A stretch of 64,000 bases of DNA, taken from NCBI GenBank assembly GCA_037379345.1, contig CM074512.1:62021597-62085596 (forward strand). Reading direction: 5' to 3'. Source of the DNA: Perna viridis (lineage: Eukaryota). The stretch's first letter is position 1. Every line of letters starts with the position of its first letter. The notes below the pieces were generated by a model. The model did no database searches and was not told the origin of the DNA. It saw nothing but the letters and a program-made list of their open reading frames with translations. This document shows, in pieces, positions 215-62,000 of this stretch. A program made the position numbers and the translations under genes.

Positions 215-2495
215 TATTTCTGTACCTGATTCAAGTACTACCTTGCTGATAATTTTATGCAGAAACTAAATGAGAACATTTTTGTCCTTAAATATACCAA
301 ATACTCAGTTTAAATGATGTTAGATTCCCCTTTTTGGCATTTGTTTTTGCTACAGAAGTATAAGTGATTATAGGCATTCCATCTTTCATAAGAATAAAAT
401 TTAAAACATTCTGGAAGATTGTTGATTGTATGCAAGCACATGCATCATGGTACATGTACTAACTAAACAACTGGATGGAATATTGGAGTCACCTTGTTTG
501 TCATTAGGTCTGTTTGAATTTTGTCACAATTATCTCATGTATCAATGGATTTGTTGATTATAAATTTGGTATATGGCTTTATCAGAACTTTACCATTATG
601 TTTCTCTTTTGACCATGTTTACTTCCAATTTCATCAATTTCCTCTTGTTTTGATGGGTTTGTAAAATAATGTCTGCTTTATATAAATTTGGTAACACATT
701 GTAAGTGAATTTGGTTGCATTTTAACTTCCTACTTGATGGGACTTTCCCACTTTTTTCACTACATGAACTGATAGAGAATTGTTTATCATAAAAACTGGT
801 TGAATCAAAATCAAGTGTAGTATTTGGCTTTATATATAGATTGTAAGTGATTTTTGTTGCTTATCACAACAAGGTATACAACTCCATGTTAAACATTGCC
901 TAGTTTTGGGTTCTGAATGATATATATCTTGCTTGTCTGTCACTGTTGCCTTGTCTCATTGGATATGGCTGTTTCTGGTGATTGTTGTACTTGCTGGTTA
1001 ATATCTTATTTTTTGCTTTCATATAATATAAAAAGTGCTTAATTGTATCTAGATGAATCATGTCAAATCTGTGTACATCAGTCACCAATGGGACTTTCTA
1101 AATTCAAACATTATAGTGAGATAACCTCTAAAATGAGGATGTGGTTCTTTTTGCTTGTTTAATTAGTCATTAACAAGAAGAATTTCAAAGTGACTTTGAC
1201 CATGAATTTGACTTTCAGATGAAATAGTTAAATCAGTCACTCTTGGGACTTTAAAATATCAAACTAAATTGGGAGATAGCATAAAATGAGGGAGTCTTTC
1301 AAAAATCAGATTTTATTTGGAGATAATCTCTGTAATGAAGATGCAAGTCTATTTACTTGTTTAATAATCTGTGTGCAAGAAGAAATTCAAGGTGACCTTG
1401 AGTGTGGATTTGACTGTTTTCATCCATTACACAGCAGCTTGCCTATACACTGCACTGGATTCTCTTTACCATATATCTGATATTGTTGATATATTGATTT
1501 TGTGTCTGTAATGTACCAATCTCTGTAGTATTTGAAGTTATGAAATTGAATTCCTAAAGAAAATTACATTCATGTAAATAGGAAAGTCGTATAAAATGGA
1601 AAACAACATTTTAGTCTTACTGGTAGATCATTTAAAGTCCAACAAAGTAAAACTGTTGCTAATGTGGAAATTTTCTTTAAAGTCATTTGACATGGTTAAG
1701 GGCTGTTCAAGAATCATTTGTGGCAGGTTTGGATCAAGAAGTATTTTCCAGTAATGGGTTGTGGGCTTTTGTTTTGTAGAGAATAGAGAAAAACATCAAT
1801 TTTGATTTTTGGGTGGCAGAGTCTTGAAAAAAAATCTGATACACTCCCATATATTTAATACTGGAGCTGCAAATACCATTAAAATTTGTACCATACAAGT
1901 AATGACTTCTGTATTTTACATTGTTATAATCAACTCTTAACTTGTAGAATTTTATTGTTGTAGTTTTAAAGGATTTCAATTTTTTTGTGAATTGATTTGA
2001 TTGAAATTGTCTTTAATTTCAGTGCATCAGTATAGTTTGCATTACTATGCTATATACAGTGTTGTAATATTATCATATATTTCTGTTCAATTTAATATGA
2101 ATCCTTCTAGCCTTTTATGTTTTTTTTATGTTTTTTCATGTCATTTTCTCATTTACACTTGTTTGCCTCCTTTGCAATGTAATTGTATGTTGTATGGGTT
2201 AAAATAATCTTAATTGAAGTAACTTTGGATTCAAGCATTATTCCTGATACTGATTAGCAATCCACAGGACTTCTATTTCTCTGAAAGGGGGAGACATTAT
2301 GTTAATATCAAATCTGGAAACTTGATTCAGTATTCAATATCTTCAAGGTATTTTTTAGTTTAACCTTACCATTTCTAAGTTTGATAGTTTATGCTATCCA
2401 GATGAAAATTGTATCAACATATACATTGCAGAGAAGACATTTAATTGTGATACATAATGATCACTAATTCATCTCATGATATTTCTTTCCCATAG

Positions 2496-2522
2496 GAATG
2501 GGTGAAAATGAGGCTAACGGGA
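2496..2522 (+). CDS. Candidate 27-nt DLG micro-exon (HOOK region)
   Basis: Acceptor tttctttcccatag, donor gtaagt, phase 1-1, open frame (G)MGENEANG; joins in frame to the 4169 exon. Confidence 0.7.
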
Positions 2523-2865
2523 GTAAGTAAAGCACCCTGTCTCTCTATCTCTCTGCTGCCAACGGCCAGCATGATCAAACTCTCTCACTGTATTGCATGA
2601 ATGTCTGTCAAATTGCATCTAAAAATGTATAAAAAGATCAGCTGGTGATAGAATTGTATAGTTTAATTTACCAGTAAATATCTCCATTTAAGGTTGAAGA
2701 TTGAAATGTTATGTGTGGAATGTATCCTTGTTATGTCCCTTTATTCCAAAAAGTATATTGCTAATTGATATTAATTAGTATCATTTGTATAAACAAAATA
2801 AAATGTTAACTACTTGCATGGTTCCCATCCATTATACAAATTCTACTTTACGTTAAAAAACAGTT

Positions 2866-2973
2866 TGGAATGACACATGAACTTCAAACTAAATTCCAAT
2901 GACACATGTGTGATGGAATGACACATGTACTTCAGACTAAATTCCAATGACACTTGTGTGATGGAATGACACT
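2866..2973. repeat. 48-bp tandem duplication, about 2.3 copies
   Basis: Unit tggaatgacacatgaacttcaaactaaattccaatgacacatgtgtga. Confidence 0.85.
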
Positions 2974-12165: not shown

Positions 12166-13350
12166 ACAAGAGGCTCTTGAGGACCTGAATCGCTCACTTG
12201 GACAATTTGAAATCATGTGGACATATAATTTGATCATTTAAACAAAGGGTTTGGAGTGTTATCTTTACTTGTATACCTGCAATCCCCTAGCCATCTGAGC
12301 CGTACAAAAAGAAGACTATTTGTAAAGGACCTTGAGGTCATTAAACCAAGGGTCCTGAAACAGTAAAAAAAGCCAGTCATTGACCAACAAATTTTGCAAA
12401 TAACTGACGACCATTTTCCAATATTGGACATAGATTAGTCTACATGGATTGATTATTGTATAAACATCCTGTCTACCTGTCTGTAATTGTTTACTGGAAA
12501 TTAATTGACAGGTGTGCATCAATATTAGCTGATATTAGCTGATGTGCAGCCACGTGACTGTGATTTACCTGTGACTGATCAGTTGATTGCATTATTTAAT
12601 TAATGGTACACGTGCAGCAGGTATACGAATTAATTGAAGTGACTCAGAGAATTTTCGTACGTGTATTACTTGATTTAATTAAGAAACAGATTGCCAAATC
12701 CATCATTTTCCCATCGATCTTTCAGTGGTAATGAAAGCACATGGTCACATGGCACTGAAACTACGAATTGGTTGTAGTTTGTCATTGTCAATTTATCGAT
12801 TGAATCTTTTTAACACAGAAATCAACAACCCATTTAAATCAATACACAAAATGTATTCACGATTTTCTTTTACAAATAATCAACATCACTCAAAAGTTTT
12901 CGGCTGTTTGCCAATGTGATGAAAAGTCCGAGAGATACACTGTTTTGTTAACATGTTTTGTAAAAGACAGAGTGTGATGAAATAACACAAATTCCTATAT
13001 GTTTCAATAACAAATAGGTGTTGTTTTTTTTTAAGTTAATTCCTGATCTGAGCATGTAAATTACTGACACAAACATCAGCTGAAGTATGATAAAATGACT
13101 GACATGAGCTGTCAAAATTTCTGGACTTGCATTAAACCCATCATGTTTCAAAACATTGCCACCTGTGGTTTCAGAGAAGTTGATCTTTGAAATTTGACCT
13201 ATCAGAAGCTTATATAGCCTCTGGTTGCCATCTTGTATAATTAAACACAACCAAAATTTTATCATATGTTTATTTGTCCCTTTTATTATTTCTGCCAAGT
13301 TTGGTCATCATTGGCTAAGTAAAAGCAAAGATATAGGACAAAATGTGTTT
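12166..13350 (-). mobile_element. HINE-like remnant interrupted by a hAT MITE
   Basis: The reverse complement of 12166-12200 is caagtgagcgattcaggtcctcaagagcctcttgt, the same terminus as 8068-8103. Core-like sequence resumes after 13137; the far boundary is approximate. Confidence 0.55.
12347..13129 (+). mobile_element. hAT-type MITE, copy 1
   Basis: Ends CAAGGGTCCTGAAA...TTTCTGGACTTG; perfect 8-bp TSD cattaaac (12339-12346 and 13130-13137); collinear with 22940-23791. Confidence 0.9.
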
Positions 13351-14998: not shown

Positions 14999-15105
14999 AA
15001 ATGTACATGTACACACAGCTCCAATCACACACACAAATGTACATGTACACACAGCTCCAATCACACACACAAATGCATATGTACACACAGCTCCAATCAC
15101 ACACA
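14999..15105. repeat. 36-bp tandem repeat x3 in the ENOX 3' UTR region
   Basis: Unit aaatgtacatgtacacacagctccaatcacacacac. It explains the spurious ORF at 14897-15184. Confidence 0.85.
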
Positions 15106-15239
15106 AAAATCCATAAAGTAGAAGCTTAAAAACACTAACAAAATGACACTTAAAATGATGGTGATCTATCACCCCCTTTTTCAACTTAATGTATGTTCAT
15201 GTGTAATGGTAATGTTATTGCACATACAACATGCACATA

Positions 15240-15600
15240 ACGGTGATCTATCCTATACATGAATAGAATGCTGATCTATATAAATGGTGATTTATCATAT
15301 TACAGAATGGTGATTATCAAAAAAAATGTAAATATTGGTGATTGATCAAAACATGTACAGAATGGTGATATATCACATACATGTACAGAATGGTGATATA
15401 TTACATTCATGTACAGAATGGTGATGATCAAAATGTACATAATAGTGACTGATCAAAACATGTACAGAATGGGGATATATCACATACATGAAAAGAGTGA
15501 TGATGTATCATATACATTTACAGAATGTGATGTATCATATACATGTACAGAATGGTGATATATCATTTACATGTACAGAATGGTGATCTATCATATACAC
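15240..15600. repeat. Degenerate minisatellite of about 28-31 bp in the ENOX 3' UTR region
   Basis: Recurrent acatgtacagaatggtgatatatcacat variants. Confidence 0.75.
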
Positions 15601-15727: not shown

Positions 15728-18700
15728 TCACAGAAAACTAAGAACATTTGTGTCTTTATACCCAGTAAACTGCCACTTTCTCTCTATCAATGCTCCAACA
15801 CCTGTGGTCTGCATATTGAATAGGAAAGGTAGTTTTTCCAAAAGGTCTTCTAAATGACTGGTCTTTGTTGATAGTCCTAGCTGATTCAGATAGGACCAGA
15901 TATACTCCACACTTGCTCCCATTGGATGTACATGTAAGAAACACGCAATCAGACCTGAAATACATTAATAAGAACATTTATAATATGAACATAACACCAA
16001 TTTCATCTGAGTTATCAATTATCTTTGAGTTGTAGAATCCTGTTCTCTATGATAAAGGTTCTTTCAATGACACAAGAAATTGAATGTTTACTGTTTAATA
16101 TGTAAAAAGTGATATTCAACTGCCCACCAAGAAAGATTCTGTTTCTACAAGTTCTAAAAATAAGGTATAAATCACTAAAAAAGGAAATGATGATCCCCAT
16201 AATAAATCCTTTCTGCAATTTTTTCATGAATATTCATAGATGGAATCTGGGTTTTAGATTGGGTGGAGGGAGGGGGGGGGGCACAGTTAAAATTTTTTTA
16301 GTTAAATTTTTGAAATATTCGTCTAGAGTGGTGCAATGCAGATATCTTTAGTGGTAAAATTAGCAAGAAATTAAAGTTTCAACCTTAACCGCCTATATCT
16401 ACCCCTGACAACCCATGCTTTGCAAATTTTAGAGGGGGCGCACACCCGCCACGCCCTAGCCTGAATCCGCCCCTGATATTGTACACCACAACTACAGCTA
16501 TCAAAGTCAATTACAATTTTCTTTTTTAATTACAAACGGCTGATTTTTGTATTTATAAAAAGAAATAAATAAACATTTACTGAATCTAAAATACTATATG
16601 TCTGTTGTTAATAGTTCTAATCATAACCAATCAATACTGTCAAGATAGATCAAACCTATTACACAGAGCATTCTTTTCTGTTATCTTGCAAAATCATACA
16701 GAAGTATGATTATTCAGGGTTTGGTTTAGACAGGTTTTTGGAGTAAACAGGGTTTGGTTTAGACAGGTTTTTGGGATATTCAGGGTTTTGGTTAGACAGG
16801 TTTTACTATATACAGAACAATAACTGTACCAAGTAGAATGGGAGAAAATTAACAATGTTAAAATGGCGATTGAACTTGAAGGACTTTCCTGGTCTTACAC
16901 ATAATAAATCTAATACTGTAACATACCAATAAGTTTAGCCTCATTCTCAGTCAGATTGAGACCAGAACTGCTCACACTGGTATCTGCGACCTCTTCTTGT
17001 ACTTCTGTTTCAGATTCTTCTTCAACCTGTCATTACATTAAACAATATTTTCATATCTGCATTAGTTCAGACATATTTGGATTTTATTCATTGGCCTTTA
17101 GTTTAGTATCAGACTTCTTAAATATTGTTATACCATATGGTTGGTAATGTTTTTCATTATTTTTTTAGCTCTTTACCAATCATCTCATGTTTTTCTGACT
17201 TTTTTAGCCCACATTTTCAAAGTAAACCTTCTGACATTTCTTATAGTCCACAAACATAAGGATCAAATTGATTGGCTTTGGGTATAATATCAGACTTCTT
17301 CAAGGCCTTTTACCATTTCATATCATTATATATGTTTAGTTTCATTTTGTCCTCTGTCACATAGCATCTTTCAAAATAACAAAGGCACTATAAACCCAAA
17401 GGTCAAGACCAGAACACAGTACTAGGTATAAGATCTGAAAAATTGTTTTTGCACTTTTATACAACACCTTTTTCACATTTCTTTGAAATAACTTTTCAAA
17501 ATGATTTGACAAAATACATACATCATTTCCTTTGTCTTCCTTATCTTTATCTGTTTCATCTCCTTCCGTTGTATCTTTGTCTTTTTCTTCACCATCGACT
17601 TCCTTTTCCTTTCCTTCTTTAGATTCTGAAATTGATTGTTTCTTCCTCTTCACCTCAGCTTTAGCAGTTTTTACTGCTTGTTTCAATTGTTCATTTTCTC
17701 TCTCAACAGATTTCGATTCTTGTTTTGCTGCTATAAGTTGCTGAAAAAATGTGCTTTAAAACTAACAACAATCTAAAACTAAATACAAAAGATGTAAATT
17801 CTTTAGGTAATTAATTAATCTTAATTATTATTTGTGTAAATGAGAGTTAATAAATTGGTGCAGACAATAGTTTAACAACTGAAATGTGTGCTGTTCACAC
17901 TTGATAAAATAATTAACAAAATAATATCATTACCACACTTAAAACACATTTGCACAAAACTGATTTTTTCAAGAAACAAACTATACTTAGAAGCAAATAT
18001 TCTTCAGACATCTAATGAAAATATAAAGGACTCATTTCAAAGTATTTTTTCTATAAGTAAACCATATTTGATAAAGTCTTCTATTAGGCAAAAAAAAAAC
18101 ATAATAGTCTTGTTTCCTGCTACCAGCCAAAAAAAATAGGGTAACCAGGTAGAGATATTATTTTAATTTACAAAAATATTTTATATTGAGTTAACGGGGA
18201 AACAATCTAGACTTTAACAGTGCTTGAGCCAAATTGGCCATAAAATGTTTAGAGTAAGCACAAAAAAACCTATGGTAGGTATGGTAGCAGAAAACAGACA
18301 TACATTTTTTTGCCTTAGCACAGGGAATGCTCTCTCTGAACTGAGTCATCTATGAGCTACACTCAGTACTGGGATTTTTAAGACAGACTACTCTCCTTAC
18401 CTGTTGCATGCCTTGTAATGCTTGCTGCAACATTTTGATCTGAGCATCTTTAGCTCCTGTATCTACGACAGACTTCTGCTCTGCCTTTATCATTTCTACT
18501 TCATTCTTGTAGGCATCTAGTTGACACTTCAGAGAATCATTTTCACTCTTCAAGTAATTAATATGTTCTGGAAAAAAAACAATTCATTTATTAACATCAA
18601 ACAAGTACATGTATTGGAAACACAGTGAAAAAAATGTTTATAATACTCAGTAAAACTGAATGTGTTGTGTTTTTTCACTTGAAATATTTTCTTACATTTA

Positions 18701-21700: not shown

Positions 21701-24700
21701 TAAGTTTATATACTTTCCCCAGATTGACAACTTTCCACACCAAGCTGATCAACCAAGTGTATGTATTTTCTCCAGATTGACAACTTTCCATACCAAGCTC
21801 ATCAACCAAGTGGGTGTATTTTCTCTAGCTTGTCAACCTTCCATACCAAGCTGATCATCTTAGTTTCATGTATATCTATAAACTTACCAATACCTATGCC
21901 AGCTATTTGTACTTACATTGCTGTAGAATAGTTTGTAACAATTGTTGATACTTCATCTTGGCTCTCTCTATTTCTTCTTGTCCTTGTTGTTTTTCACCCT
22001 CAATGTTACGGATACGGGCATTAGCACATTGAATGAGTGAATAAAACTGGGACACATTGCGTTTGTTACAGTCTCCCCTCTCTAACCATCTGTTGAGGAT
22101 GTGAATGGCAGTGATAAAATGATCTTCAGCTACAATTAAAAATATGAAGGTTTAATAGAATAAAACCTGTCAAACTATGAATAACAAAAAAAACCAGTCT
22201 AAACAAACACTTATTAAGTCCTTTTACATCAAGGCAAATGCACTTTGAACCTTAGTAAGTTGAACACTTGTCTACACCAAACAAATTTTAGTCTAAAAAT
22301 AGTTCGGCTATACAGGTTTCACTGTATTACACATGTTCTAGTAAAACTTAGTGAAATGAGCAACATGGTCAATAGAACTTAAACCACTCTCAATGACCTA
22401 CACATCAGAATTACCAATGTACATAAGCTAACAGAACAGGTTTAACTATTACAGGGCTCTTTTTCCAGAGACGTTGCTATCCTGAACATTTAACAAAATC
22501 TGCTATCAACACTATATATTGGTAACAATACATTGTACATGTTATTTTCAAGAATAAATTTTGACACTACTATACAGATCTTCAAATACAAATGAGCAGA
22601 GGCAAATTAAACAAAACTTTCTATGCTTTAATACTATCACAGAACTCTTATTCATTGGACCAACTTTCATAGTTTTCAAGACTCAAGAAAACCAAATTCA
22701 AATTCCCAATGAAAAAAAAATATCCATTACTAAATTATAGGTTTTCCTTTAGATCCACAAATACAATTGATTGATTGATTGTTGGGGTTTAACGTCCGAG
22801 CAGCAATATTTCAGCTATATTCAGACCATCCACAAATACAAAGCCAAAGAAACTAATGAAATTTTTAAACACCATGAAAAGCAACCACGAATTAAAATTC
22901 ATTTCACAGTAATCTGAAATAACAAAAGTAATTTTAGGCCATGGATCCGGAAATGGTAAAAAATGACAGTCATTGACCGACAAATTTTGCAAATGACCGA
23001 CAACAGTTTACCAATATCGAACATAAAAAAATTGTGAACCCTTATAAATTACAGTCTGCATGGTTTTATCAGTGTATAAACGTCCTGTCTACCAGTCTCT
23101 TAATTGTTTATTGGAAATTAATTGACAGTTGTGCGTCAATTTTAGCCGATGTGCAGCCACCTGTGACTGTGATTTACCTGTAACTAAATGGTTGATTGCA
23201 TAATTGAATTAACGGTACATGTGCAGCCCCATTGCCTGTACAAATTAATTGAAATAACTCGGAGAACCTTCATACATTTTTTAATTAAGAAAAAAGATTG
23301 ACAAGTCCACCATTTTCCCATCGATTTTTCAGAGGTAATAACGAAAGCACATGGAACTGAAACTACAAATCAGTCGTACATGTAGTTTGTAATTATTAAT
23401 TCTTCAATTGAATCGTTTTAACACAGAAGTCAACAGACCATTTAAATCAATATACAGAATGTGTTTGTGATTTTCTTTTATAAATAATCAACATTTTTTT
23501 CATCACTCAGAAGTTTTCGGCTGTTTGCCTATGTGATGAAAAAGTCAGAGAGATCCAATGTTTTGTTTACATTTTAGAACGTCCATGTGAGGTCGAAACT
23601 GAGCTCTTTCACTCACTTAAAAGGCAGAGTATGTGATGAAATAACACACTTTCCAATATTTATCTTAAAATAACTACATACAAACGTTATTTAAGTTTAT
23701 TTTCGATCTGAGCATGCAAAAGACTGACAAAAATGTCAGCTGAAGTTTAATAAAATGTCCGGCATGGGCTGTCAAAATTCACGGACCCTTGTTTTAGGCC
23801 ATAAAAAAATTCCTACATGTCATTTTTGTTCAAACTTTGGGGCAGGAGAGGGTTAGTTTAATTCTTTATTTTTCATCAATTTGCATGAAAAATGCTGTCA
23901 ATTTTAAGAAATTGACATAAAAAGTTGTATGGAACTTACATTTGAGTTTATCTAACAGAACAGTAGCCTCATGGTCATTATAATGTACTATTGGGGGTGG
24001 ACTGGGTGGGCGGTTCCTCGCTTCTTCCATTCTCTGTATATGTCTCATCTGTCTGGCCATAGCACGTTGTTTACATTCAAACTCATACTGGTCATCACGA
24101 GCATTGGCATAATCAACATGGAGACGTCCTGTATTATCCTTATCATCTTTGTCTTCTATTTTCATCCTGTACCCTGTTTAGAATATGGAATGGGATTAAC
24201 CACAATCTCTCCTACAAACTCTTATCTGAGTAAAATACATGGATTTTAAGGGGGCTTTCTTTTCAGGAAACAAAAAAATTCTACCTCATTTATATGAAAT
24301 AAAATAAATATCTAACTTAAGTACTTGAGATTTCTAGATAAAACACTTTTCCTTGTGCTAAGTCTATTGGTATAAAATAAGCATTTGTATACATTTTTAC
24401 ATATTTGTTGAAATTCTAACTTTCATATTCAATATGAGCACAATACATAGCAAGGTCTTCTCTCAGACTTTCCTAACTATATTCAGTATTCAATATGAGA
24501 AGCATATTGGAAATTTTTTTGAAAACTACTCTACTATGCGCACATCAGTAACTTTAAAATACAGAAATTATATACCTGACATAAACAAGGCTCTGTCTGC
24601 ACTTTCTTCATGTTCAAATCTGATGTGAGCAAAATTCTTCTTGCCTTTCCTTATACTACAAATGATACCAAAGTTCTCAAATATTTCTCCTAACATGTCT

Positions 24701-26431
24701 TCAGAACAGTTTTCTGGTATTCCTCCAACAAAAATGGTTCTACAACCTGGTGGCCTCTCCCGGACAGAAGGTGGTGGAGCATTCATCGGAGGAGGGTAAC
24801 ATACACTGCTCTTCACCCTTAAGATTTCTTTAGGCATGAACTGAGCCAGCATGGCTAGGTCAAGTCCTGGGATAGAGGAGTTAGTACTAGCATTAAAGGA
24901 TCCTAATCCCATACCCATTCCTTGGGATCCATCTGTCCCTGGACCATTCTGCCCCATGGGTCCTCCTGGTCCAAATCCACTATACTGTAAACACAAACAG
25001 AATTACTGACTACTAATTCTCTTGCATAAAACTAACACACTTCACTTTACCATCACAAAGTCACAATCAACAATATAAGAAAAAAAAAGTTCAAATAAGT
25101 ATTAATCAAATTATGAATATCATCACTATGATAACAGATAATAGAGCCAAATGTTACATTAAGTTGTAATAAAAGACACAGACTGTGTCCCAAAAATACG
25201 TAATATACCGTTTGGCTGGTTACTTTGGCAATTTTGAAGCCAAAAAAGTGTGCAAATTTTTTTTCCTGATTCTGATTTTGATGGATACTAAATGGTGCAC
25301 TTAGTTCTCAAGCTAACAGTTAATATTTCAAAGATTTTTTTTTTGTGTTTTTAAACACACTATTAAAATACACCAAAATTAGCACCCTGCGAAAAACAAC
25401 CACTATATGGTATTTAAATAATGCATTAAGCACAAAAATATACCTGGTTGTACATCATCTGCATGTTGTTGTCACCCATCATCTGTCCTTGTCCCATCAT
25501 AGGACCACCCATCTGTCCACCAAACCCCATGTTTCCCATCATTCCTTGGTTACCACCCATCATCCCTTGGTTACCACCCATCATTCCTTGGTTACTTCCC
25601 ATCATTCCTTGGTTGCTGCCCATCATGCCCTGGTTACCACCCATCATAGGTCCTTGGTTACCACCCATCATATTCATGCCACCTCCCATTGGTCCTGGGT
25701 TCCTGTCCATAATATTCATATTGCCCTGGTTAGGCATCATTCCTCCTTGAGATGTCATGGGATTACTCATGTCATTTCCACCTTAACAGATTATAAACAA
25801 ATAAATATTATTCTAATTACATCAAATAGTGATGATATATCAAATAGATTTTCACGTCTGCTGAAGAATTATACCTCTGACACAAAAATTAATCACATCT
25901 TGATTTTTAATGCCATAAAACTAAGAGAAAGAACTAACAAATTTGCTAATTCATCATTTTTTTGTTGTTGAAAATTTCGGAACTTTGAAATTAACCTGAA
26001 AATGAAAGGGGCTTCCTAACACTAAGCCAAATAAGTATTAAAATGTTTCAACATGTTTTTTTTAATTATTGTTCAATATGTGGAGAAACTGAATGACAGC
26101 CAAAAAGTAGGAACAAAATGATACATCCAAGTCATCATGCAAAAGCAATATATCAAACATCTTAGCTTCCTCTCCAATAAAAGCTGAGTAATCTGCAGCA
26201 GAAAAATGTATCAAATGGAGTGACAATGCAGATAATATAGCCTCTACCCCCACTCATTCTACCCCTACTCATTAGAATAACTAACATTTGATGAAGTTAA
26301 ACATGTACATGTACATGTATACCTTCTATTGGCATGGGTGGTTTTCCTTTATTACTGTCAAACTGTAAAGGAGCATTATTGTTTCCAGGATCATACCCAC
26401 GATTACGTCCAGATTTCTGTGGACCGATCAT
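15728..26431 (-). CDS. ENOX1: Ecto-NOX disulfide-thiol exchanger (ENOX1/ENOX2 family) RRM protein, about 759 aa
   Basis: Minus-strand exons 26431-26323, 25781-25444, 24984-24576, 24173-23940, 22129-21917, 21122-21016, 19886-19730, 18567-18401, 17740-17522, 17026-16927, 15954-15728; phases agree, total 2280 nt. Diagnostic motifs: RERPPGCRTIFVGGIPEN (RRM), GRLHVDYANARDDQYEFECKQR, WDHFTKAQRKNI, ENDSLKCQLDAYKNEVE, FLHVHPMGASVEYIWSYL. Probably co-orthologous to vertebrate ENOX1 and ENOX2. Confidence 0.94.
16235..16475 (-). mobile_element. hAT-type MITE of the CAGGGGCGGATCCAGG family, degenerate copy
   Basis: Reverse-complement homology to 58153-58379 over about 230 bp; ends cctgaatccgcccctg; no clean TSD. 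Confidence 0.7.
16710..16812. mobile_element. Tc1/mariner-type MITE end with three ggtttggtttagacagg subrepeats
   Basis: Same subterminal repeat as in 34543-34714 and about 22155-22327. Confidence 0.6.
18087..18314. mobile_element. Tourist/PIF-Harbinger-type MITE
   Basis: TTA|GGCAAAAAAA...TTTTTTTGCC|TTA; 3-bp TSD TTA. Confidence 0.75.
21719..21857. repeat. 53-bp tandem repeat, about 2.6 copies, ENOX intron
   Basis: Unit ccagattgacaactttccacaccaagctgatcaaccaagtgtatgtattttct starting at 21719, 21772 and 21825. Confidence 0.85.
22940..23791 (+). mobile_element. hAT-type MITE, copy 2 (ENOX intron)
   Basis: Ends CATGGATCCGGAAA...TTCACGGACCCTTG; perfect 8-bp TSD ttttaggc (22932-22939 and 23792-23799). 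Confidence 0.9.
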
Positions 26432-26971
26432 TGTACACCTAAAAGAAGAAAAAAAATACTACATAGCACTTGGTAATGTGAACTAAAATCCTGTTTGGTA
26501 AAACAATACATCTTTGGACTGATTGGTAAATACATGTAATTCACCTAGCTTTTGAAGCAATTTATTTTTACAATTTCCATTTTCTAGGTCAAATTGTATA
26601 CTGAAGCAGGCATCTATTTACTTTTAAATAGCAACCAAGTTATGTCAGCTACAACTTTTATATACATGTACCTTGGTCCATATTTTACTTTTAAGATTGG
26701 CAAGTCCTAAACTTTTCCAAGTTTCAAATCAACGGTACACTTGAGGAAAACCAAGTCTTCAACAAAGTGTCAATGAATAGAGTTGAAAGTCTGGGACCTA
26801 GGTAAAGTAAATTTCAAAGCTTAGTCAGAAATGGAAGGCCCTGGATGCCAGCACAGCACTAATTTATTGCCTCTGTAATATACAGGTTTTTGATATTTTT
26901 ACGCTCGTTATAAATTGTAGATAAATATTAACTTCAGTTGCATCACTATCATTCAATAATGCTTCAACTTA

Positions 26972-27171
26972 CTGTGAAAGTTCTATTGTTTGTGGGGTAC
27001 CAATGGTCATGGTTTTTGTGGGTAGGACAAACCACTAAATTTAGTTCCCAATGAAAAGGAGAATCCCTTTGATGTTTATACTGAAAACCTCAAAACCACG
27101 AAAATCCACGATATTGTGTTTCTTCCCTTATCCATGAAAACTGGTATCCACGAATTGAAGTACTTTCACAG
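26972..27171. mobile_element. TA-flanked MITE (Tc1/mariner-like)
   Basis: TA|CTGTGAAAGT...ACTTTCACAG|TA; related degenerate copies at about 18715-18908 and 22640-22765. Confidence 0.75.
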
Positions 27172-28280
27172 TATATGATAAATTTATATTATAGATTTTC
27201 AGCTTTTCACAGAAATACATGTAGATAGCAACAAAAGGCTATATCCTTGCTTTAGGTCTGCAGCAATATCATGAAAGTAGTTATAAATTTATATTCAAGT
27301 GTTTTTTTTTAGATAATATTAAAATTCACTAAGTGGTGGAAAGGTTATATTTTTATTTTACTAGGATGACATTTAAAAGGTGTCATAATTCTGTAAAAAC
27401 CATGCCTAGCTTTTTTAAATGTCAATGTCCAGTATAGGGTAAATGCATCTAAGAGATACATTTACATGTTTTCTCATGGGCATGCCATGTACTTTTTAAC
27501 TGTTGACTGAACACCATACAAAGTGCTGCTATGCTGTACAACGATTAGCCTTTTTCTTCAGAGACAAATGTGACAGCATTATAGTGGTGTACAAATGTGC
27601 CAATGGCAATAAATTTTGTTGACCTATGCCCGGGCTAAGCCCAATGTTCATGGAGCCTCAATTAAGCTACTAAGTAGTTTGCTTTTGAAGAGGAAGATTT
27701 TCATGACAGTTTTTTTCACCATCAATAGGGGTTCAAATTTACTTTCAAGAATGGAACGTCCTAAACATTCTTGAATTCTAAATAAGTACATTGGTACACC
27801 CGAAGGAAGTAAAGTATGGTAGGTCCTGGATCTAGCTAGATTCTAGGTAAATGAAATTTCAATGGACCAGAGCTTACTTGAATCACTGATTATTAGCATA
27901 AGAAAACTGCTGGTATATAACCACCTGAGAGCTATTATAATCAAAATCTATCTTCGTGGTGTTTGCGTTTTGTTCTCTTCAGGAACGAGATTGTTTGACG
28001 TATTAGTAAACTGTGAAACGAGGTGTAACTTAATAGAGTCAATACAATTTACAGATTTAACAACGAAACGATTAAATCGAAAACTAATCAAAATTTGTGT
28101 TCCCTGCACACAGCTTTGTTCTGCTTTGTCAACCAACACAGCGGTCGGGGGAAATGGCACTGATACAATGTCATCTTGTATGTTAAACGTCTTTTTTATA
28201 TTTTTGCAATAGGAAATATAAAAACCAAGATTTCTTCAAGACACAGAAAACCTTAATAAAGAAGACTTCGTTTACCTTAC

Positions 28281-28400
28281 CAAAGAATGTATATTATCAA
28301 GTGAAACAGGTAACGAAGCACATATTTCATAAGCAGCTTCACAAACTAGTCAAAGAGAGACAACTGCATATGGTATCAATCAACATCCTTTGCTCCGTTC
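28281..28400 (-). other. Probable non-coding first exon of ENOX
   Basis: Minus-strand donor TTG|GTAAGG at 28281/28280 inside the CpG-richer region; the ATG exon (26438-26323) begins with its own acceptor, so an upstream exon is needed. The 5' limit is approximate. Confidence 0.5.
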
Positions 28401-29248: not shown

Positions 29249-29377
29249 AGCCCTTTTCACAAAAAAAATCGTATGAGTAAAATTAATCGTAAGTTGTGAC
29301 ATCACAATACTTAACTCTACTATGACATCATAACTTACGACTAATTTTACACTTACGATTTTTTTGTGAAAAGGACT
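29249..29377. mobile_element. Short foldback MITE in the ENOX-CENPI promoter interval
   Basis: ccttttcacaaaaaaaatcgta...gtaaaatta-tcgtaagtt pairs with aacttacgactaattttac...tacgatttttttgtgaaaagg. Confidence 0.75.
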
Positions 29378-29836: not shown

Positions 29837-29922
29837 TTCGCGTTTAAAATATTGTTTGTTTGTACTTCGCTTTTAAGAACAATTTGACTCAGATGGGCGG
29901 AAATTTCAATTTTTGTTTTGAA
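29837..29922 (+). promoter_or_regulatory. Cell-cycle promoter motifs (E2F site and CHR-like elements) upstream of CENPI
   Basis: TTCGCG followed by TTTAAA (29837-29848); GGCGGAAA (29896-29903, reverse TTTCCGCC) abutting TTTCAA; TTTGAA (29917-29922). All within 110 bp of the ATG in CpG-retaining DNA. Confidence 0.55.
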
Positions 29923-32900: not shown

Positions 32901-35900
32901 TAGTAGATGTAATTGGCACTTGTAAACATGGTAGGTCAACTGCTATGTCTCTTGTCATGTTCACATTTCTGTGAAAAAATGCGTGACCAAATGTTAGATG
33001 AAGGTCTAGATTACTCACAAAGTCAATTATGAGTGGATATACATTTTGTTGAGGTGCAGTTATTTATTTCGAATTTTATTTAGTCAGCTTATGCACTTAT
33101 GAAAACTTATATACAAATGTATTTTGTAAAGAGAGAGAACAATTGACACTGGGAATGTTTAGATCTAAAGCATTCCTGATTATAAATTGATTTGAAGTAA
33201 AGTTGTTTCAATTCTTTACTTATTGTATATCGTTAAATTGTAATATATTGTATATCGTTAAATTGCTGTGATAGTGTTATTCTTCAGTTACATGTATTTG
33301 ATGGAGACCTCTAACTATAGAGTCAAATGACTATGATTTGGTATGTAGTTCTCTGAAAATGTTTGTGGTATAAGGGACCTTTTTTTTTCATACTACATGT
33401 ACATATATAGTGTAAGAACAATATTTACTAGGTTTATTATAAGTACATAAACAAAGTTAATATCCACAGGAACCAACTTCCTGATTTCTCTTATAAAAAA
33501 AAACAAGGAACAGCTCTTTAAATGTTAAAGAAACAAGAAATTTATTCTTTTTTTATTAATCAAGCTAGTGTAATGATGTTGGATTTCTTTTTTCTTGCAG
33601 CTGAGTCAGTTAATACCAAATTGATCAAGTTCCTCATTCCAGAGACGTTTGTTCCTGAGAAGGCAATAATCAGATGTGTGTCCTACATGTGTACTAATAA
33701 ACCATCTACAAATATCCAGGTATAAAATGTGTGTCCTACATGTGTACTAATTGACCATCTATGAATAATTGAAGCTATCATTTTGACAAACCTCAATAAT
33801 CAAAGAGGCTTAAAGCATGTTTTTTTTTTTTTTTAAATCAGTCTGAGTCTAAAAGTTCTTCCATGTTTTAACAAAAACCACAATTTAGCCCATACAACTT
33901 GAACCAAATTATTGTACATATCTGTATTTAATAACTGGTTTCTACATGTAATAATGTCATTATGCTTTGACCAATATACATGTATGTTTCCACACTTTTT
34001 AGATGTTTGATATTAATCAGTCTTAACTCTAAAAAATATAAGTAGGAATAATTTGTATACTGGTACACGTTATACAGGTCGCATGAAAATGTCAAATTAA
34101 ATTCTGTCTTTTGTTAATATTCTTGCTATTTTGAAATGTGTAATAAAGAAAAATGTTGAAAATTGATTCTGAAAGATAAATATGTAACTGAATTTACCAA
34201 CCACCATTACAACTACTGAAAACTAACTTATTTTCGTGAGTGATTTATTTCGCTAATTTTGCAAGCAAGAAAATAATTGTACATATATCATTGCAAATTA
34301 GTCATTTCATTACAAACTACATAATGAAACTGAATGTTAGTTGGTAAAAAATAGTAGCGAAATTGAATTGCTATCCAGAAACAAAGTTGGTTTACTCTAC
34401 AATATAGTTGTATTTTGTAGTGTCTCTTACTACGTTGGATTCTAGTAGTATATGATTATATAGACAGGAAAGATGACATACATAAACTCTATGGTCTTAT
34501 CTTCTACTTCCTGGATAATCAGACTATGGTAAGACTGAGTTACAGTGAAACCTGTCTAAACCAAACTTCTGGGCTTTAAAATTATTCAGTTTAGACAGGT
34601 GTTTGGTTTACCAAGGTTTAAAATACATTTAAACTGATATAAATTACTTTTAAAAGTGTCTGGTTTAGACAGGTTTTCAGATTATTCAGTGTTTGGTTTG
34701 AACAGGTTTCAATATATTTTACTTGTTTAATTGTTTCCCCAAAACATTCTTGTTGACAGCAAAATTGGTAAAATGGATCCATCTCATTTTACATTATCAT
34801 TGTACCTTTAACAAATGCTGTCTTCACATATTGAGATAATCTAGGACAGAGATAGTTATAACTTTTCCCTATTGTTTTAAGTTTAATAAGGCCACACTTA
34901 AAATAATGTGTGTTTCCCCTTACCAGACCTTAGCTCTTGGATTTGGATAGGTATGTAGCGAAAATTTTTTTTTTCCCCAAGTTCATATGAATCACTTAAA
35001 ACCTTGTCCACAACCAAAGAAGTGGAAAATCTTTCCTTGAAAATCATAACAAAAATCTTATCAGAGAATGGCAATAAAATTATTTGGAAAGGGCAAATTT
35101 TTATGGGTAGGGAGATTAGGGGATACAAACTTAACTTTAATTTTGGCCTAATACAGTTGAAAGATTGCAGGGATGTTAAAATGAAGTTACTGTCAACTGA
35201 TATAAGAATTGTTTGAAAAATAGTATAAATACTAACCAACATACATGTACATGTATGTGAAGACAAAAATATAACTTAATTACATATACGACACCACAAA
35301 CCTCATGATATATTCCTGACTAGAATCTATTCTGAGATATTTTTTTCATTTACCCCATTCCATGTGATATATTTTCAGATGCCATATGTTTGCCATTTGT
35401 TATTCTTGTTGACGAGGAAAGAAGATGTGAGACTGTTTAGAGTTAGGAAACTATTGAACCTTCAAGACAAAGTTGTAAGTTTTTAGCAATGATTTGTAAA
35501 ATGATGCAGGTCTAAAGAATGTCAAATAGGATGTCAAGAATGTTGTGTTATATAAACATGGTGTTTTAACAGATGTCTCTATGGGTAGCATTATTATGGT
35601 GGCTTCTTAAAATACATGTTCATCACATATCTTTATATTTTGTATTTGTGAAAAATTAGTATTGAATGGTATTATGGCATCTTTTGTTGATGATTTTAAA
35701 GATGGGGAACTATTCTCTTTTTAAGTTACATCTATTGAAATGCACCCAGCCACCAACAAAATAATTTCTGTATCAACATAATATTTCAGATCAATTAAAA
35801 AGTACCTAGTGAATTCGAGCCATATGAGTTGTGATTGAGAACATTAATCCACAAAACTCCTTGTTATACTTTATTCATGGCATTCATTTTACATTACAGG

Positions 35901-41900: not shown

Positions 41901-44900
41901 TGTAGCCTATATTTATTTAAAAATCCCTTTACATAATTCAAGCAATGTTATTTTTTCTTGGAATGCTGTATATTACAGGATAAATTTTTATGGGTTTAGT
42001 AAAATGGTGTACAAATTTAAACCCAACTTTCAATGACACCTTCATTTTAGAACCATTGTCTCTTACTTAGGCATTCTGAAGGATTTCCAGCCAAAATATT
42101 TCTTATAGATTATCTATGGCGGATGTCGAAATAAGTACTCTTCCTCTGGCACGCTGCAAACAATTTTCATGACAGCCAAGTCAAAGGATGTTTGCCTGCT
42201 ATGCCACCTACTTTTGGATGTTTTTTTTTTAACTTATCATAAGGGCAAATAAATTTCACTCTAAGCCAGTTTATTTTCAGGAAAGCTTGCCTACTTGACC
42301 AGCTGGGCAACTTTCTTATTTCTACCCCTGTATGGATAGATTTCAGTTTTTGTATGATTGTAGGAAGGTATTCCTGCTGTTGATAAGTTCTTAGCAAGAT
42401 TTTTACACCAATGGAATGGTGAGGATTTTCGTGTACATATATTTAGACTGATAACATACCACAGAATCTGTTCATTTCATAGTAAGTATAAATTATATAG
42501 TACTGACTGATTTAATCATATTTTTATGAACAGTTTTTTTCCTATGAATAGTCAAAAGGGCACTAACCCTTTCAAGATCTTTAAATTACTAAATTGAAGT
42601 TATTTTAATTCAAGAATTGACAACCATGCAAAATTGAAATAAATCCATTTTATACGTTTTCATAGTAAATGTAGTTGATGCTTTATTGTACGAATAGTAT
42701 TCAAAAACAATTTTTAGAAATATCCTCATTATTACATGAATTTATCAATATAAAGTTTACATTAAAAATATTAGAGCCTTTAAATACCATTTTGTGTAAG
42801 AATTTACAGGCCATGGATGGCAGGCACATCATTTTTCTCAATTTGGTATTTTTTTCCCCCAAAAATACAGTGAAACTTCTCCAAACCGGCCATCACTGGG
42901 ACAAGAAAAAATGGCCAGTTTATAGGGATGGCCAGTTTTGTGAAAAATAGCAATTCATTCTAAGAGCTGTTTCCATTAGTGTGTTCTATAACCTTACATC
43001 TTGTCAGTTTGTTGGTTGAGGCATGTTAAATGCAAATTCAAAACTTTTGGCCTTTTATTACATTTCAAAGCTTGCATCATTTGTAAATGATTTGATTTTA
43101 CAAACGGTACTGCCAACAAAATAATGTTCACGGTTTTGAAAGAATGTGTATTAAAGATCACAGGGCTATTGGTGGTATACTATTAATTATTTGTATTGTT
43201 TTCATAAATTACCAATCGAAAAAGTCTAATGATTTCACCCCTATGTTGTTTTTTCTTGGGCACATGTCACATTAATTGACTGTTAAAAGATCGTAAAGAT
43301 CATACTATTAAATGACCCCGGTTGCCTGACGTGTGTACACACCAATTAACAGCCAACCAGTGACAAAAGTGATTAAATTTGTTGTTTAAACTACTGTCCC
43401 CTTCAGTTATTATCTGTCCACTGATGTAATGCAAACTGGTCAGTGAATGAATTAATGATTACGTAATATTACATAATCATTTACAGTTTTGTTGACACAT
43501 TTATTATGGTGAACAATAACCGGGCGGCCGGAATTGAGAGGTTGTTTTTATTTGAAATATGTAACTAAAACTGTGAAAAACCAGCGGATATATGGTTTTA
43601 GGGGGTTGCCAGTCTATGGAAGACAAAACACAGATGTGTTAAGGTACATTGGGCGGGACTTTTGAAAACGGCCTGTTTGAAGGGAAGACCGGTTTTCTGA
43701 GGGTCCGGTTTGGAGAAGTTTCACTGTATATTCAGTGCATCTAGAGGTTAACCAAAATGCTATTTTATTTAAATTAATCCTGAAGCATCTGTGAAGTAGA
43801 TATTTTATACTGCTTACAATATAGGAAATAATGTGGGAAAAAATTTTCCTACCATTTTTCCATAGTGCATTTCAACTAAATTTGACCAATCTATATCTTA
43901 AAAAGGCAAACTTTGTAGACACTTTGATGGTTATTTCTGGAGATTATGAGGTAGAAATACTTGGATAATGCATTAAAATCTTATGCACATTTTGCCTGAT
44001 TCTTAGACAGAGAAGTACTTTAAAATTATTTTCACATAGCACATATATGAAACTGAGAATATACAGCCGAAAAAGATATTTTCACCCTTTCCTCTCATAT
44101 AGTATGTTACAATGTACTACATGTGTTCATAACCTTTTCAGGACTCCATGACAATGTTTTAGAACCATTAAGAAAACTTTATTTTTGTACATCAGTGTTT
44201 TTTAAGGTAAGTTACTCAATATTTCACACTATCAAATATTTTTTCAATATTAATTTGAATATATTATAAGCAGATGACATTCTATTGATTCTGTAGAATT
44301 ACTGCAAACATTGAGGGAAACTGACCTAGTTTTGGGGTAGTGTGTACACCTTGCATGTGGGAGGTCAAGAGTTGGATCCATGCCGAGTGCCACCAAAGAC
44401 TTTAAAATTTGAAGTTACTGCCTATCCAACAAATACACAGTATTTAGGGGAAAGAGTGATAAATGTTTGGCTCTGATTCTGAATGTGTCAGAGAGGGGTA
44501 ACATGCCTACCTGCAGGGTGTAGCTACTGTCTGATTCTGAATGTGTCAGAGAGGGGTAACATGCCTACCTGCAGGCTGTTGCTTCTGTCTGATTCTGAAT
44601 GTGTCAGAGCGGGTTAACATGCCTACCTACAGGATGTGGCTTCTGTCTGATTCTGAATGTGTCAGAGAGGGGCAACATGCCTTCCTACAGGCTGTGGCTT
44701 CTGTGAGCTAGAGCAATAAAGATCTGGCTCAGGGTGTTGGACTAGTATAAAGCAGGATCTATTTGATTGGTCAAATGTTCTTGTCCTGTAGTGCATGATA
44801 TAGGACATTAAAACAAAATTCTAACATGACATGTTTCAAAGCTCTTTAGACTACAGACATGGTAGAAAAATGATAAACACATGACCAACATTTGTTGTAA

Positions 44901-58379: not shown

Positions 58380-59074
58380 AATTAATGTGTAGATATCCAT
58401 GTCAAGTACTGTACGTCCTGATTTGTTTGTTAGCTGTATTGTTACTAAGGTTTGGCATTTCTGAATTAACATTTATTTGAACCGAGGCCCTATAAGCTCA
58501 CTTTGACCCCATTTGACATTGATGAAAAGGTATTTTGATGAAGGCTGTATGATCACATATATATATGTGTGTGTGACATTTGCGGTTGGAATTGTGGGCA
58601 ACATAATGAGTGTTTCTGTAAAAGCGAATACGACAATGAATTTTGGAGGATACGAACTAACATCTAGACTGGGCTGCTCAGCAAAGTAAAGGCTTGTTAT
58701 GACAATTGCTTGAGTGACTTGTAGGTGAAGGGACATTTTTCTTCACTATTCTAGCTTTGACCCCTAATAATTCTACCATTTTTTGCACCCATATAATTCT
58801 TTTCTGTCAGTTTCTGTATGTTTTCTGTCGTGACGAATGTTTTGATGCATTGTTCCTTGTTTCTAATGTTTCGTCTTTACTTCTTTAACTTAAGAGTTAT
58901 GATCAATATTAATGTTTCCGAATGGCCCTAAAATATAATATTTTACAATTATACATTATATATTTCATGTTACATTAAGCACGTCACAATTATGAATATT
59001 GTTAAATCATTTGCATTTGTTTCACTATATGAATAGTTTATATCAACAAAACATCTCAGACAATATTGACTTTA

Positions 59075-59088
59075 GTAACCATGGCAAC
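59075..59088. promoter_or_regulatory. RFX X-box motif
   Basis: GTAACCATGGCAAC, a near-perfect X-box palindrome, about 3 kb upstream of the LRR ATG. Confidence 0.4.
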
Positions 59089-62000
59089 ACTATTGACATA
59101 TAACAATGACACAATGTTGCATTATCTATGATAGAAAAAGCCATCCGGGTTTTGAAATTTAAATCCATATTAAAACTACCTTTTTGATTTTTCATTCCAC
59201 GTACCATAAAATCGAAGACAATAATTGATTACTGAATCTAATGTGACAATTTCTCGCTCGCTTTGTTCTTTAAAAAAATATGCTTAGTCAGTTGCATATA
59301 TACTTTATTGAATTGTTTAAGGGCTATGAACAACTTATACAGTTCTATGAATTGAATGTTACATTATGTTGCCTTATTTTTCTGTTACCGTCATGGTAAG
59401 CCTACAACTAGTGGACGAGGTCTACTGAAGGATTTTTTATCACTAATCATAAGCTTCTGCCTGGTTTTAGGCAGAGGTGTACTTAAAAATGTATCAAGTT
59501 ATTTCAACAGCTAGCCCATTTTTTGTTACGCTTGGCCGAAAATGATTCCTAAAATGTCCATACTGAATTCTTTCAACTACCCAATTTTTGGTACGCTTTG
59601 TCTATTGAAGATATTAAGCTATGGATTCTGAATTCCACAATGCATCCTTTTGTTCAATAAAGTTAAAGGGGCTGTATGCATTTACCAATCAAGTACTTTA
59701 TTGCTTATCGTTCTGAATTCGGATTCATATTTTACAAAATGCACCGACTTGGCTAAGTGACCCAAAAACACACTCACAAAAATCTTGATGTTAAGTTTGC
59801 CAACACAGCTGATCTTTGATAATTTATTATATTGTGTGTAATTTATTTCTTTGTACATGCTTGTTCTAAATGACTTGGTAGTATGGACCAACATGCAGTA
59901 AAGTAGGGTGGCATGATGGAAAATTTAACAGTTACTTGTGGTACACTTACCTTCAATTTATTTCATTTCAATTGCATATGTATTATTTTGCATACTGTTC
60001 AAGTTCTTGTAATCTGTCGTTTGTGAGAAATTATAAAGACACTTAAGTACCATTCCATATAAAATTCAGACAATGCCAATGGTAGAAGCTTTACTTTTGT
60101 GTAACTTAAGTCCTTTCTGCATACAGATCTGTATTTTGATGAAAACTATACAGTCCTGGTCCACACAAATCAACTTAATCAAGAAAAATAACTCTTGCAA
60201 AGTTCTAATTCTATACACAATGGATGCTTTTATATCAAAAGTGCAACAAGCATATGACAATCTAAGACTAGTTATATGGTCTGTAACTGTTTCTTAGTAA
60301 GAAATTAAAGTCAAATAGGCGGGTTTTTGACATGCAGGATTCACGTCATGCCAGATCTTTGTAAAGACTGCCACTATAAACATGAAAGATAAAGTACGAT
60401 ATACTACGGCTCAGGGCGGACAATGAATATCTGTAAAAGGTATTCGCCACGTAAGTCAAGTCATATTGTCTGTCCGAATTTTTGTTTTGTAAACCGGTAC
60501 CATTTAATACATTTATATTTAGTAGAAGTCTTTACAAATTTCAAACAAGAGGTTACTCATGTTAAAAAAAACACGCATGTAGATCGAGAACGCATGGTTC
60601 GTGCGGTTTTATGTTTTTTTAACCACTTCTATCATTGACAATGTCTGAATTTTGTATGGATTGGTGCTTAAATCTACAGCCATTGATTTTAAGATTAACT
60701 TGGCTTTTCGAATACATACAGGTACATTCTTATGGACACCTCTATGAAAAGAGATTATATTTATCTCCTGGGGAGAATTTCTGTTCAATACATGCACGGT
60801 ATAATTAAAATTTTTCATATGAATATTCTTACTTTGATAACAACTAATTTAAATTTCACGTATTATCTATACTTCTATGGAGGAATATAAATATAGAATT
60901 TGATCTGCCCCGATGTAAATGCAGATACATAGAAAGTCAACTTTAAATATTTGTATTTCATCGTAGCAACAACGTACACACGAGTTTGTGACTTTCTATG
61001 CTGCAAAAGTTCACTTTACAATATAGAGTGAGTAAAGTTTACTTTCAAGTGGGAAACTTAAATATTTATTGATCTGCAAATATTTGATTGGAAACATTTG
61101 TAAATAGAAGTTGGACGGGAGAGGTCTTATTTTGTGGTTTGTCACGCTCAGTAATTTAAACATCTTTAAACATCATTTATAAAACAGCTGTAAAATCTCT
61201 TAAATCTATTTATTTACTCGTACATGTATGCTAATCGTCCATCAGTTTTATGCTAAATATATCGATTCGAATTAGTTTCTATCCTTGAAAATGTAAACTG
61301 AATTTTAGGTTTGAAACGGAAGTAAGGTACATTATCAATGTACGCATAAGGTCACGCTTTAAAAACCCTATATTGGTCGCAAAATGTGCTGAGTGTGCGA
61401 ATCCAGGCTATTGCTTGCTTATTTTCTTACCAAGATTAGCACATTTCTTTTTAATACCAAAAGGTTGTTCCGCCATTGTCATGTGATAAATTAAAATTAT
61501 GCCGAGATAGGCAACGCGGTGTGCGAATCCTGGCTGTTGTTTGCTTTTTTGTTACTAAGATTTACATTGTAATGTGATAAATTGAAATTAAAAACTTTTA
61601 CAGTTTACCTCCCTTTTGCGTGTAATGAACAAAGTGTGTTACTGATTCAGTCCGTCTTTAGAAACGCGACGTAAGTTCAAAACTCTCGGTCCCATGGCGC
61701 TTTTTATTTTGTTGTCTAAAGAACACATGTATTCTATTTTAGTATTTTAGTACTTGATGCCCTAGCATGAGAACGACAAGTCAAGGGGTACTAACTTGGA
61801 GATATTGAATGTTTACTTTTTATTTACAACCCCTTTAAATCTCAAAGAAGGTCGGATTATTTCTTGGAATAAATCAACTCGGAACTTTATCCTCTGAACA
61901 CATTATTATTTGGCTAGAGATCTACTAGGTTTATAATTTGAAAAAAAAAGCGTCTGGGAAACCGACTGTGATCGGGAAATCAGAAAAATGTAGGCAGGTA

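Follow-up and report, generated by a model that had tools for sequence, protein, structure and literature searches.

The activity of DNA transposons is normally judged from surviving copies, an approach that misses the elements that have jumped away; the closest described systems concern the marks that such departures leave behind. In the IS630-Tc1-mariner superfamily, insertion occurs at TA only, with duplication of that TA, and at the 5' ends the cut lies two to three bases within the element (PMC2170065). The scars of Tc1 in C. elegans are made by end-joining in the soma, where a gain of four bases (+4) is typical (78%), and in the germline homologous recombination restores most of the broken sites (PMC13148408); the form taCATGta has been called a rare Tc1 footprint in that worm (PMC3520976, citing Eide and Anderson 1988). 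A survey in rice that read DNA-transposon excisions by genome comparison found lasting marks at TA-type targets; the outcomes were heterogeneous, perfect in 8 of 94 and often involving deletions or fillers, and the insertion-to-excision ratio was about 2:1 or more (PMC4423477). In Phytophthora, finally, the promoter motif TACATGTA was read as a transcription-factor site, the footprint idea being set aside for the abundance and conservation of the word (PMC3520976), and a MYB-related factor binds it (PMC11134190). Here we analyze that same palindromic 8-mer in a 64-kb stretch of Perna viridis animal DNA of 32% G+C (G000:C2:62021597-62085596; hereafter the window), which belongs to an assembly of 723 Mb in 46 contigs.

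Most of the excess TACATGTA copies are, in our judgment, very likely the excision footprints of TA-targeting Tc1/mariner-type elements with CA...TG ends, formed with both two-nucleotide overhangs kept, and the word most likely keeps count of earlier jumps instead of serving as a signal for protein binding. The likeness to Tc1 of C. elegans extends to the word, the TA target, the CA...TG ends, and the presence of DD34E transposases; but whereas +4 is typical in the worm, here +6 is the commonest product at the site tested, is inherited, and stands in an excess of about 170,000-210,000 copies. The superfamily chemistry, if cleavage here is analogous, would predict TA-CA-TG-TA together with the 3+2 and 3+3 forms that we saw, but not the CAATG forms, from CAG or CAC ends. 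In contrast to rice, one precise product dominates and, at the tested site, outnumbers the occupied copies by 13 to 1. The word shared with Phytophthora is equally an abundant one, whose abundance here accompanies an insertion origin. The footprint and the chemistry were already known; what is new is a TA in its occupied state, a spectrum of inserts at one site in which +6 ranks first, a gradient with the age of the DNA, and intact transposases in elements with CA ends. A literature search (mostly without subscription papers, and with supplements excluded) returned no paper describing TACATGTA as a footprint spread through the genome of a mollusc or another invertebrate, and neither the scale nor the dominance of +6 appeared in the literature found.

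The window contains exactly 38 copies of TACATGTA, at positions 451 to 61221, the number that the original prediction had estimated by eye, with all 20 of its quoted coordinates exact; its expectation of 2-3 copies from base composition likewise agrees with the mean of 2.62 in 100 dinucleotide shuffles (standard deviation 1.81, maximum 8) and with the 2.5 of an order-0 model. Markov models fitted to the window (both-strand values halved) expected 2.5, 2.4, 3.9, 4.6, 7.7, and 16.7 copies at orders 0-5, and 31.4 at order 6, which order is nearly circular. The word ranks third among the 8-mers of the window, behind poly-T and poly-A, and its 24 one-mismatch neighbors have 0-8 copies each. Counting beyond the window, as had been proposed, revealed the excess to be genome-wide: the total is 232,827 (0.32 per kb), the window at 0.59 per kb being about twice as dense as the mean. 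In 119 evenly spaced 10-kb stretches (one of 120 read as N and was dropped), we counted 321 copies versus 39-66 expected at Markov orders 1-3, 96 at order 4, 141 at order 5, and 260 at order 6. The excess therefore survives a higher-order background up to order 5, and orders 1-4, scaled to the genome, predict 24,000-58,000 copies, which the observed total exceeds about 4-10-fold. A reversed control word numbered 94,142 in the genome, though it overlaps the contexts of TACATGTA itself. The TA borders of the word are sharp, inasmuch as ACATGT words without those borders—AACATGTT (56 vs. 77-88), GACATGTC (13 vs. 20), and CACATGTG (24 vs. 23)—stood at or below expectation (0.7-1.0). One-mismatch neighbors in the sample were mostly raised, up to 1.6-fold, as would be expected if TACATGTA decays; also raised were TACTAGTA (42 vs. 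18), TACCGGTA (13 vs. 7), and the CAATG-type nine-mers (97 vs. 35-39, or 2.5-2.8-fold), but not the CAGTG/CACTG forms (22 vs. 19).

A single TA lying in a very high-copy repeat and read over all copies provides an excision spectrum from one assembly. The host repeat that we used for this purpose has 28 exact empty copies of a TA-centered 18-mer in 1.454 Mb, or about 14,000 per genome. When the whole genome was searched for copies with 2-12 additional bases at this TA, 74 length variants came to light, whose inserts we tallied by hand and of which a few are chance matches outside the host. The commonest insert was CATGTA (13 of 74), followed by TA (8), CA and CATA (5 each), and CAATGTA (3), with single inserts that included CACTGTA, CACGTGTA, CAAAGTA, CATTGATA, CACGTA, CATATA, and CATGTG; among the six-base inserts, 16 of 22 were CATGTA or one change from it. 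Genuine +4 scars seem to be uncommon at this TA, since the CATA inserts may have arisen by slippage of a neighboring CATA and no mirror-image TGTA insert occurs. The 13 CATGTA copies are separate events, because their outer flanks are all different with no diagnostic variant in common, because their mean identity to one another (0.787) does not exceed that to the empty copies (0.790; diluted by nonhomologous columns), and because they scatter among the 28 empty copies on a weakly supported tree. The derived state, both at the host TA and at window site 23377, consists of the TA target plus bases ending in a second TA, and the bases between the two TAs (CA, TG) are the ends of the resident CAG...CTG and CAC...GTG families. 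A cut-and-paste turnover adding 6 bp per event, as originally predicted, thus gains support from these inserts and from the surviving excess.

The occupied state of the same TA was found as well. A left-flank search gave 15 matches, among which locus L267 was the only true element, the others being deletions, substitutions, or unrelated; a right-flank search gave seven, one being L267 and three others short inserts of the CACTG, CACGTG, or CATGTG kind. L267 holds a 1,321-bp element, CAGTTGCGAT...ATCGCAACTG (CAG...CTG), whose terminal inverted repeats (TIRs) match at 21 of 22 bases, with TA on both sides and with the host sequence continuing on either side; the element has no open reading frame (ORF) over 95 codons. 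Its family numbers 957 candidates, the ends being preceded by TA in 23 of 25. Empty, occupied, and scarred states exist, then, at one site, in different copies of the host repeat. The expectation that some sites might still carry a CAGT...ACTG element is borne out to the extent of a CAG...CTG element at the same host TA, in a single case and in a paralogous copy only. The family consensus itself includes TACATGTA (L267:454-461), so that the element also spreads the word passively. Another locus, L275, carries a 469-bp insert without TIRs at or beside the same host TA.

Paralogue comparisons point in the same direction. A dispersed paralogue spanned 13 of 447 sampled TACATGTA sites and 380 of 2,448 composition-matched controls, and in this unselected test the modal length difference was +6 at 4 of the 13 versus 3 of the 380 (Fisher p 2e-5); a second method, in which the flanks were aligned separately, gave +6 at 3 of 7 sites versus 0 of 381 controls. 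Site 23377 differs between two copies within the window by a 6-bp indel, the direction of which, from those two copies, would be a gain. The informative copies mostly differ by 6-bp indels and not by the substitutions that would have told against the original prediction; the TACATGTA excess is a matter of insertion into TA, not of CpG decay. A parallel paralogue test of TACAATGTA had 9 of 111 sites testable and revealed no insertion, 7 of those 9 coming from one repeat consensus. An all-against-all indel spectrum of repeats, which we discarded, contained 190 six-base events with only one touching TACATGTA, because few sites lie in young repeats and the tally is dominated by single, unpolarized deletions. 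With respect to age, 427 sites lay in 1,140 kb without a recognizable repeat, 16 in 87 kb of repeats below 80% identity, 4 in 115 kb at 80-90%, and none in 112 kb at 90% or above (0.374, 0.183, 0.035, and 0 per kb), whereas the pooled ACATGT words without TA borders remained flat at 0.15-0.25 per kb; TACATGTA is missing from young repeats and accumulates in old DNA. Its density was also about 1.8 times higher in CpG-poor than in CpG-rich stretches (0.44 vs. 0.24 per kb). CpG-poor stretches in molluscs are usually methylated gene bodies, and this enrichment could reflect an insertion or survival bias towards them. The CpG observed/expected ratio outside repeats, in 139 sampled 10-kb stretches, was sharply bimodal, with peaks near 0.2 and 0.8.

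We propose that an element would insert at TA and duplicate it—a duplication observed here—and that upon excision the transposase would cut exactly at the 3' termini but two bases into the element at the 5' termini, as established for the superfamily, each flank keeping TA plus CA as a 3' overhang. End-joining that filled both overhangs would produce TA-CA-TG-TA, six bases beyond the original site, and three-base cuts or an added base would produce the rarer +7 and +8 forms (CACTGTA, CACGTGTA, CAATGTA). The element would then move on and the scar stay, tolerated in noncoding DNA and drifting to fixation, so that older DNA would hold more scars, and scars would come to exceed the resident elements in number; each scar, moreover, would offer two TAs in a good target context and could be hit again. 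On this basis excision would be the source of the inserts, both overhangs would be filled during repair in the germline, and such scars would make up the majority of the 38 sites in the window. Several families probably contributed, and the presence of intact CA-ended Tc1 transposases means that the process may be ongoing, most scars being old. A CATGTA insert is, by arithmetic, two codons long (Tyr-Met, His-Val, or Thr-Cys, depending on the frame) and introduces no new stop, so that a protein could gain residues from a scar; no such case was observed in an exon, none of the 38 window sites falling within the eight ORFs that we picked as exon-like.

Among the resident elements, the two Tc1-type elements originally assigned to the window fared differently: the 859-bp one at 42868-43726 is real, whereas that at 34543-34714 has an intact left end but a decayed right end (CAATA for CACTG). 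The former has 850 candidates in the genome, the best copies being 87-92% identical, and the host repeat around it occurs elsewhere with the site empty; since the sister host copies of the CAG-ended elements, this one included, have a single TA, the TA duplication is evident. A search of the flanks of 56 candidate elements for a scarred paralogue gave, among the matches listed, empty TA sites only, and de novo scans for TIRs and termini were too noisy for counting elements by end type. The genome contains at least 113 DDE_3 and at least 118 DDE_1 transposase matches; we inspected 13 of these 231 in detail, 8 of which had no clean TIR pair inside the stretch. One element, L316 (1,360 bp, TA-CAC...GTG-TA, with a 346-aa ORF; L314-L316 about 98% identical), and another, L317/L318 (1,376 bp, TA-CAG...CTG-TA, 347 aa, 99.6% identical), have HTH_Tnp_Tc3_2 and DDE_3 domains, TIRs, the TA duplication, open frames, and a DD34E spacing as counted on the translations, and by their sequence are intact Tc1 (DD34E) transposons. 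The TIRs of the transposase-bearing elements (CACTCAGG, CAGTCTCG, and CTGTAAAC) differ from CAGTGAAAC and CAGTTGCG, the TIRs not being shared with the 42868-43726 element or with the L267 family, and therefore we name no single source element; an autonomous partner may be among the remaining transposase matches. Locus L323 (G000 C5) is a 2,199-bp, intact-looking pogo-type element with a 495-aa DDE_1 protein and CT ends (TA-CTGTAAAC...GTTTACAG-TA), which ends are shared by short noncoding elements (L034:2878-3055 and L153:6573-6780); an element of this type is a possible source of the TACTAGTA excess. L311-L313 (G000 C5, C7, C8) belong to a young DDE_3 family with a 432-aa ORF and a 460-codon open frame, a size not DD34E-like, and with seven matches of identical score; its copies are 99.9% identical over 2.3-3.6 kb, the ends lying beyond the sampled stretches. 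Two DDE_1 matches share a 1,676-codon open frame at G000:C12:8262821-8267137, a long protein with tandem pogo domains that is perhaps domesticated, and G000:C5:41349690-41374104 is a tandem array of broken DDE_3 copies with a period of about 2.6 kb.

The bases on either side of the motif agree in kind with a Tc1/mariner target. The frequencies at TACATGTA sites (+1 T 0.44 and C 0.25; +3 T 0.50) resemble those at the ends of the L267 family (+1 T 0.52 and C 0.22; +3 T 0.70), the scar profile being closest to that family and less close to the 859-bp family, and both beat the background, on only 23 and 33 ends. The idea that elements re-target their own scars received modest support: TACATG precedes 35 of 4,305 TACAGTGAAAC end words versus 13-15.5 expected (about 2.5-fold), most of the 30 cases inspected continuing as element TIRs. 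Double TACATGTA words were also enriched (14 of 433 vs. 2.6 expected), which doubles slippage can make as well.

Several observations weigh against an excision origin. The usual Tc1 scar in the soma of C. elegans is +4, with TACATGTA rare (PMC13148408, PMC3520976). At two other TA sites—AGCAA-TA-TTTC (about 16,000 copies) and GGT-TA-TA-GCG, with two TAs and in the host family of the positive site (about 12,000 copies)—CATGTA accounted for 0 of 13 and 0 of 52 length variants, the latter including one +TGTA, where a few would be expected from a simple flank profile. At the positive site the TA is followed by CA, a context in which local copying could also build TACATGTA. A single occupied site was found, the three states stand in different repeat copies, and no excision was caught at any one genomic locus. 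In the contigs of other runs, compared over 26000-33700 (7.7 kb), all eight TACATGTA sites were present, with no CA-ended element in that stretch and no TA allele among the matches listed; a relative (X8) contributed hardly any coverage. The strongly raised CAATG forms have no template in CAG or CAC ends, although an untemplated base added during repair would explain them. Within the paralogue tests, one of the three +6 cases of the second method is a different 6-mer beside a TACATGTA common to both copies; the sites without +6 (9 of 13 and 4 of 7) are shared by both copies, substitutions, or poor alignments; and for TACTAGTA the 2 of 48 sites that could be tested were both substitutions, with no insertion. 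Single control words also fall in young repeats, so that part of the age gradient is not specific.

An origin by local templated synthesis would require no transposon: following a break at TACA (or TGTA), or a switch of template there, the opposite strand would be copied and the ends rejoined at the TA. The TA-CA context of the hot site makes this a reasonable rival; no CATGTA occurred among the 65 variants at the two sites that lack CA or TG flanks (Fisher p 2e-4), a second +6 in locus L260 also stands at a TA-CA, and the enrichment of doubles would fit. Yet only 23% of 402 isolated sites (background 16%) have a CA to their right or a TG to their left, several +6 cases have neither flank (L055:5809, L110:9262, L133:1085, and L051:7042), and such copying leaves unexplained both the element at the same TA and the inserts CACTGTA and CACGTGTA that match element ends; we consider it unlikely. 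That the word is instead a consequence of its carriage by abundant repeat families, or of the growth of an (ACATGT)n microsatellite, would accord with the five or six of the 38 window sites that lie in arrays, with the L267 consensus, and with one sampled array having many copies, but is very improbable given that 427 of 447 sampled sites lie outside recognizable dispersed repeats, that the flanks are unrelated, and that the runs in 1.454 Mb comprised 419 single, 14 double, and no longer ones, the (ACATGT)n runs of three or more units that a microsatellite should furnish being absent.

A functional protein-binding site under selection can draw on an Irx homeodomain preference for TACATGTA, on the binding described for Phytophthora (PMC3520976, PMC11134190), and on the higher density in CpG-poor stretches; against such a site stand the 232,827 copies, the exact TA borders with other ACATGT words not raised, and the new appearance of the word as an insertion in repeat copies, so that we give this explanation, too, very little credence, although some scars may later have been used as putative binding sites. 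Least probable of all, and largely refuted, is CpG decay (TACGCGTA or TACGTGTA to TACATGTA) or base composition, which would cover only a chance share of roughly 10-25%. The window does have an observed/expected ratio of 0.39 for CpG and of 1.26 for CA/TG, the density correlates weakly with low CpG (rho -0.18), and some paralogue pairs differ by substitution; but the excess survives the Markov orders 1-5, the informative differences are 6-bp indels, equally CpG-derivable words are neither raised nor track the CpG class, and the precursors (TACGCGTA 3 and TACACGTA/TACGTGTA 37, vs. 321 TACATGTA in the sample) are too few to be the source.

Under the excision reading, a fixed precise scar is an independent count of excisions, and one that would indicate germline repair of such breaks with both overhangs kept, unlike in the worm; furthermore, mutation can produce a motif that heads the list in a k-mer or promoter scan. 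A bolder proposition, which we advance tentatively and are rather inclined to doubt, is that nearly every Tc1-type jump in the lineage leaves the same 8-mer by germline end-joining that retains both transposase overhangs, thus creating a countable ledger of about 200,000 jumps whose scars attract insertions and seed a transcription-factor word. If that were true, the ledger would far exceed the remaining elements and be usable as a dating clock for noncoding DNA, and motifs reported elsewhere as binding sites, for example in Phytophthora, might be domesticated scars.

Table 1. Coordinates of the features discussed, numbered from the first letter of the window.
Feature	Position	Strand	Remarks
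TACATGTA palindrome, 38 copies	451..61228	.	About 2-5 expected by chance; 5-6 in tandem arrays
TACATGTA copies 1-19	451, 3289, 4714, 11620, 14898, 15004, 15040, 15378, 15540, 15568, 15929, 18606, 21553, 23377, 26306, 26312, 26531, 26663, 27216		
TACATGTA copies 20-38	30096, 33289, 33394, 33943, 33977, 35242, 35248, 36287, 38219, 38464, 38635, 39464, 40220, 46115, 47050, 50570, 52630, 56007, 61221		
TACATGTA site in local duplicate 23239-23520	23377..23384	.	Other copy (12624-12903, 76% identical) is without exactly six bases here
Paralogous copy with short (TA) state of site 23377	12624..12903	+	
36-bp tandem array	14999..15110	.	Contains sites 15004 and 15040; one origin, not two events
28-bp tandem array	15301..15599	.	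Contains sites 15378, 15540, and 15568
Exon-like ORF with RRM_1 domain	24568..25002	-	E 4e-11; neighboring ORFs 25426-25782, 23866-24177, and 17357-17755
Stacked form TACATGTACATGTA	26306..26319	.	Further partial units on the flanks; no gap in contigs of three other runs
Very high-copy 200-bp element, CT ends (TA-CTGTG...CACAG-TA)	26972..27171	.	Would leave TACTAGTA, not TACATGTA
Decayed 172-bp element of related CAGTGAAACCTG type	34543..34714	.	Left end intact after TA; right end degenerate
Second stacked form	35242..35255	.	Sites 35242/35248
859-bp noncoding TIR element, TA-CAGTGAAAC...GTTTCACTG-TA	42868..43726	.	TA-CAGTG...CACTG-TA

That a few copies would lie in tandem repeats had been foreseen correctly: two arrays hold 5 of the 38 sites, and site 38635 adds one in a weak 17-bp array. 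The units of the 28-bp array vary by substitutions, without 6-bp indels, and by that test its three sites are not scars. Both of the stacked forms noted earlier are real (26306/26312 and 35242/35248), the first reflecting either another excision at the TA of a scar or else 6-mer slippage. In one contig of run X4 the interval 27147-27716, which contains site 27216, is longer by six letters at some point and free of substitutions, a difference that we did not use as evidence. The RRM-bearing ORF and its three neighbors in Table 1 constitute what we take to be an ENOX-type gene, around which TACATGTA falls in noncoding DNA; the ORF at 25426-25782 on the minus strand, upstream of the RRM exon, encodes a Met/Gly-rich GGNQGMM repeat from a 21-bp array (25535-25671), a low-complexity segment of that ENOX-like gene.

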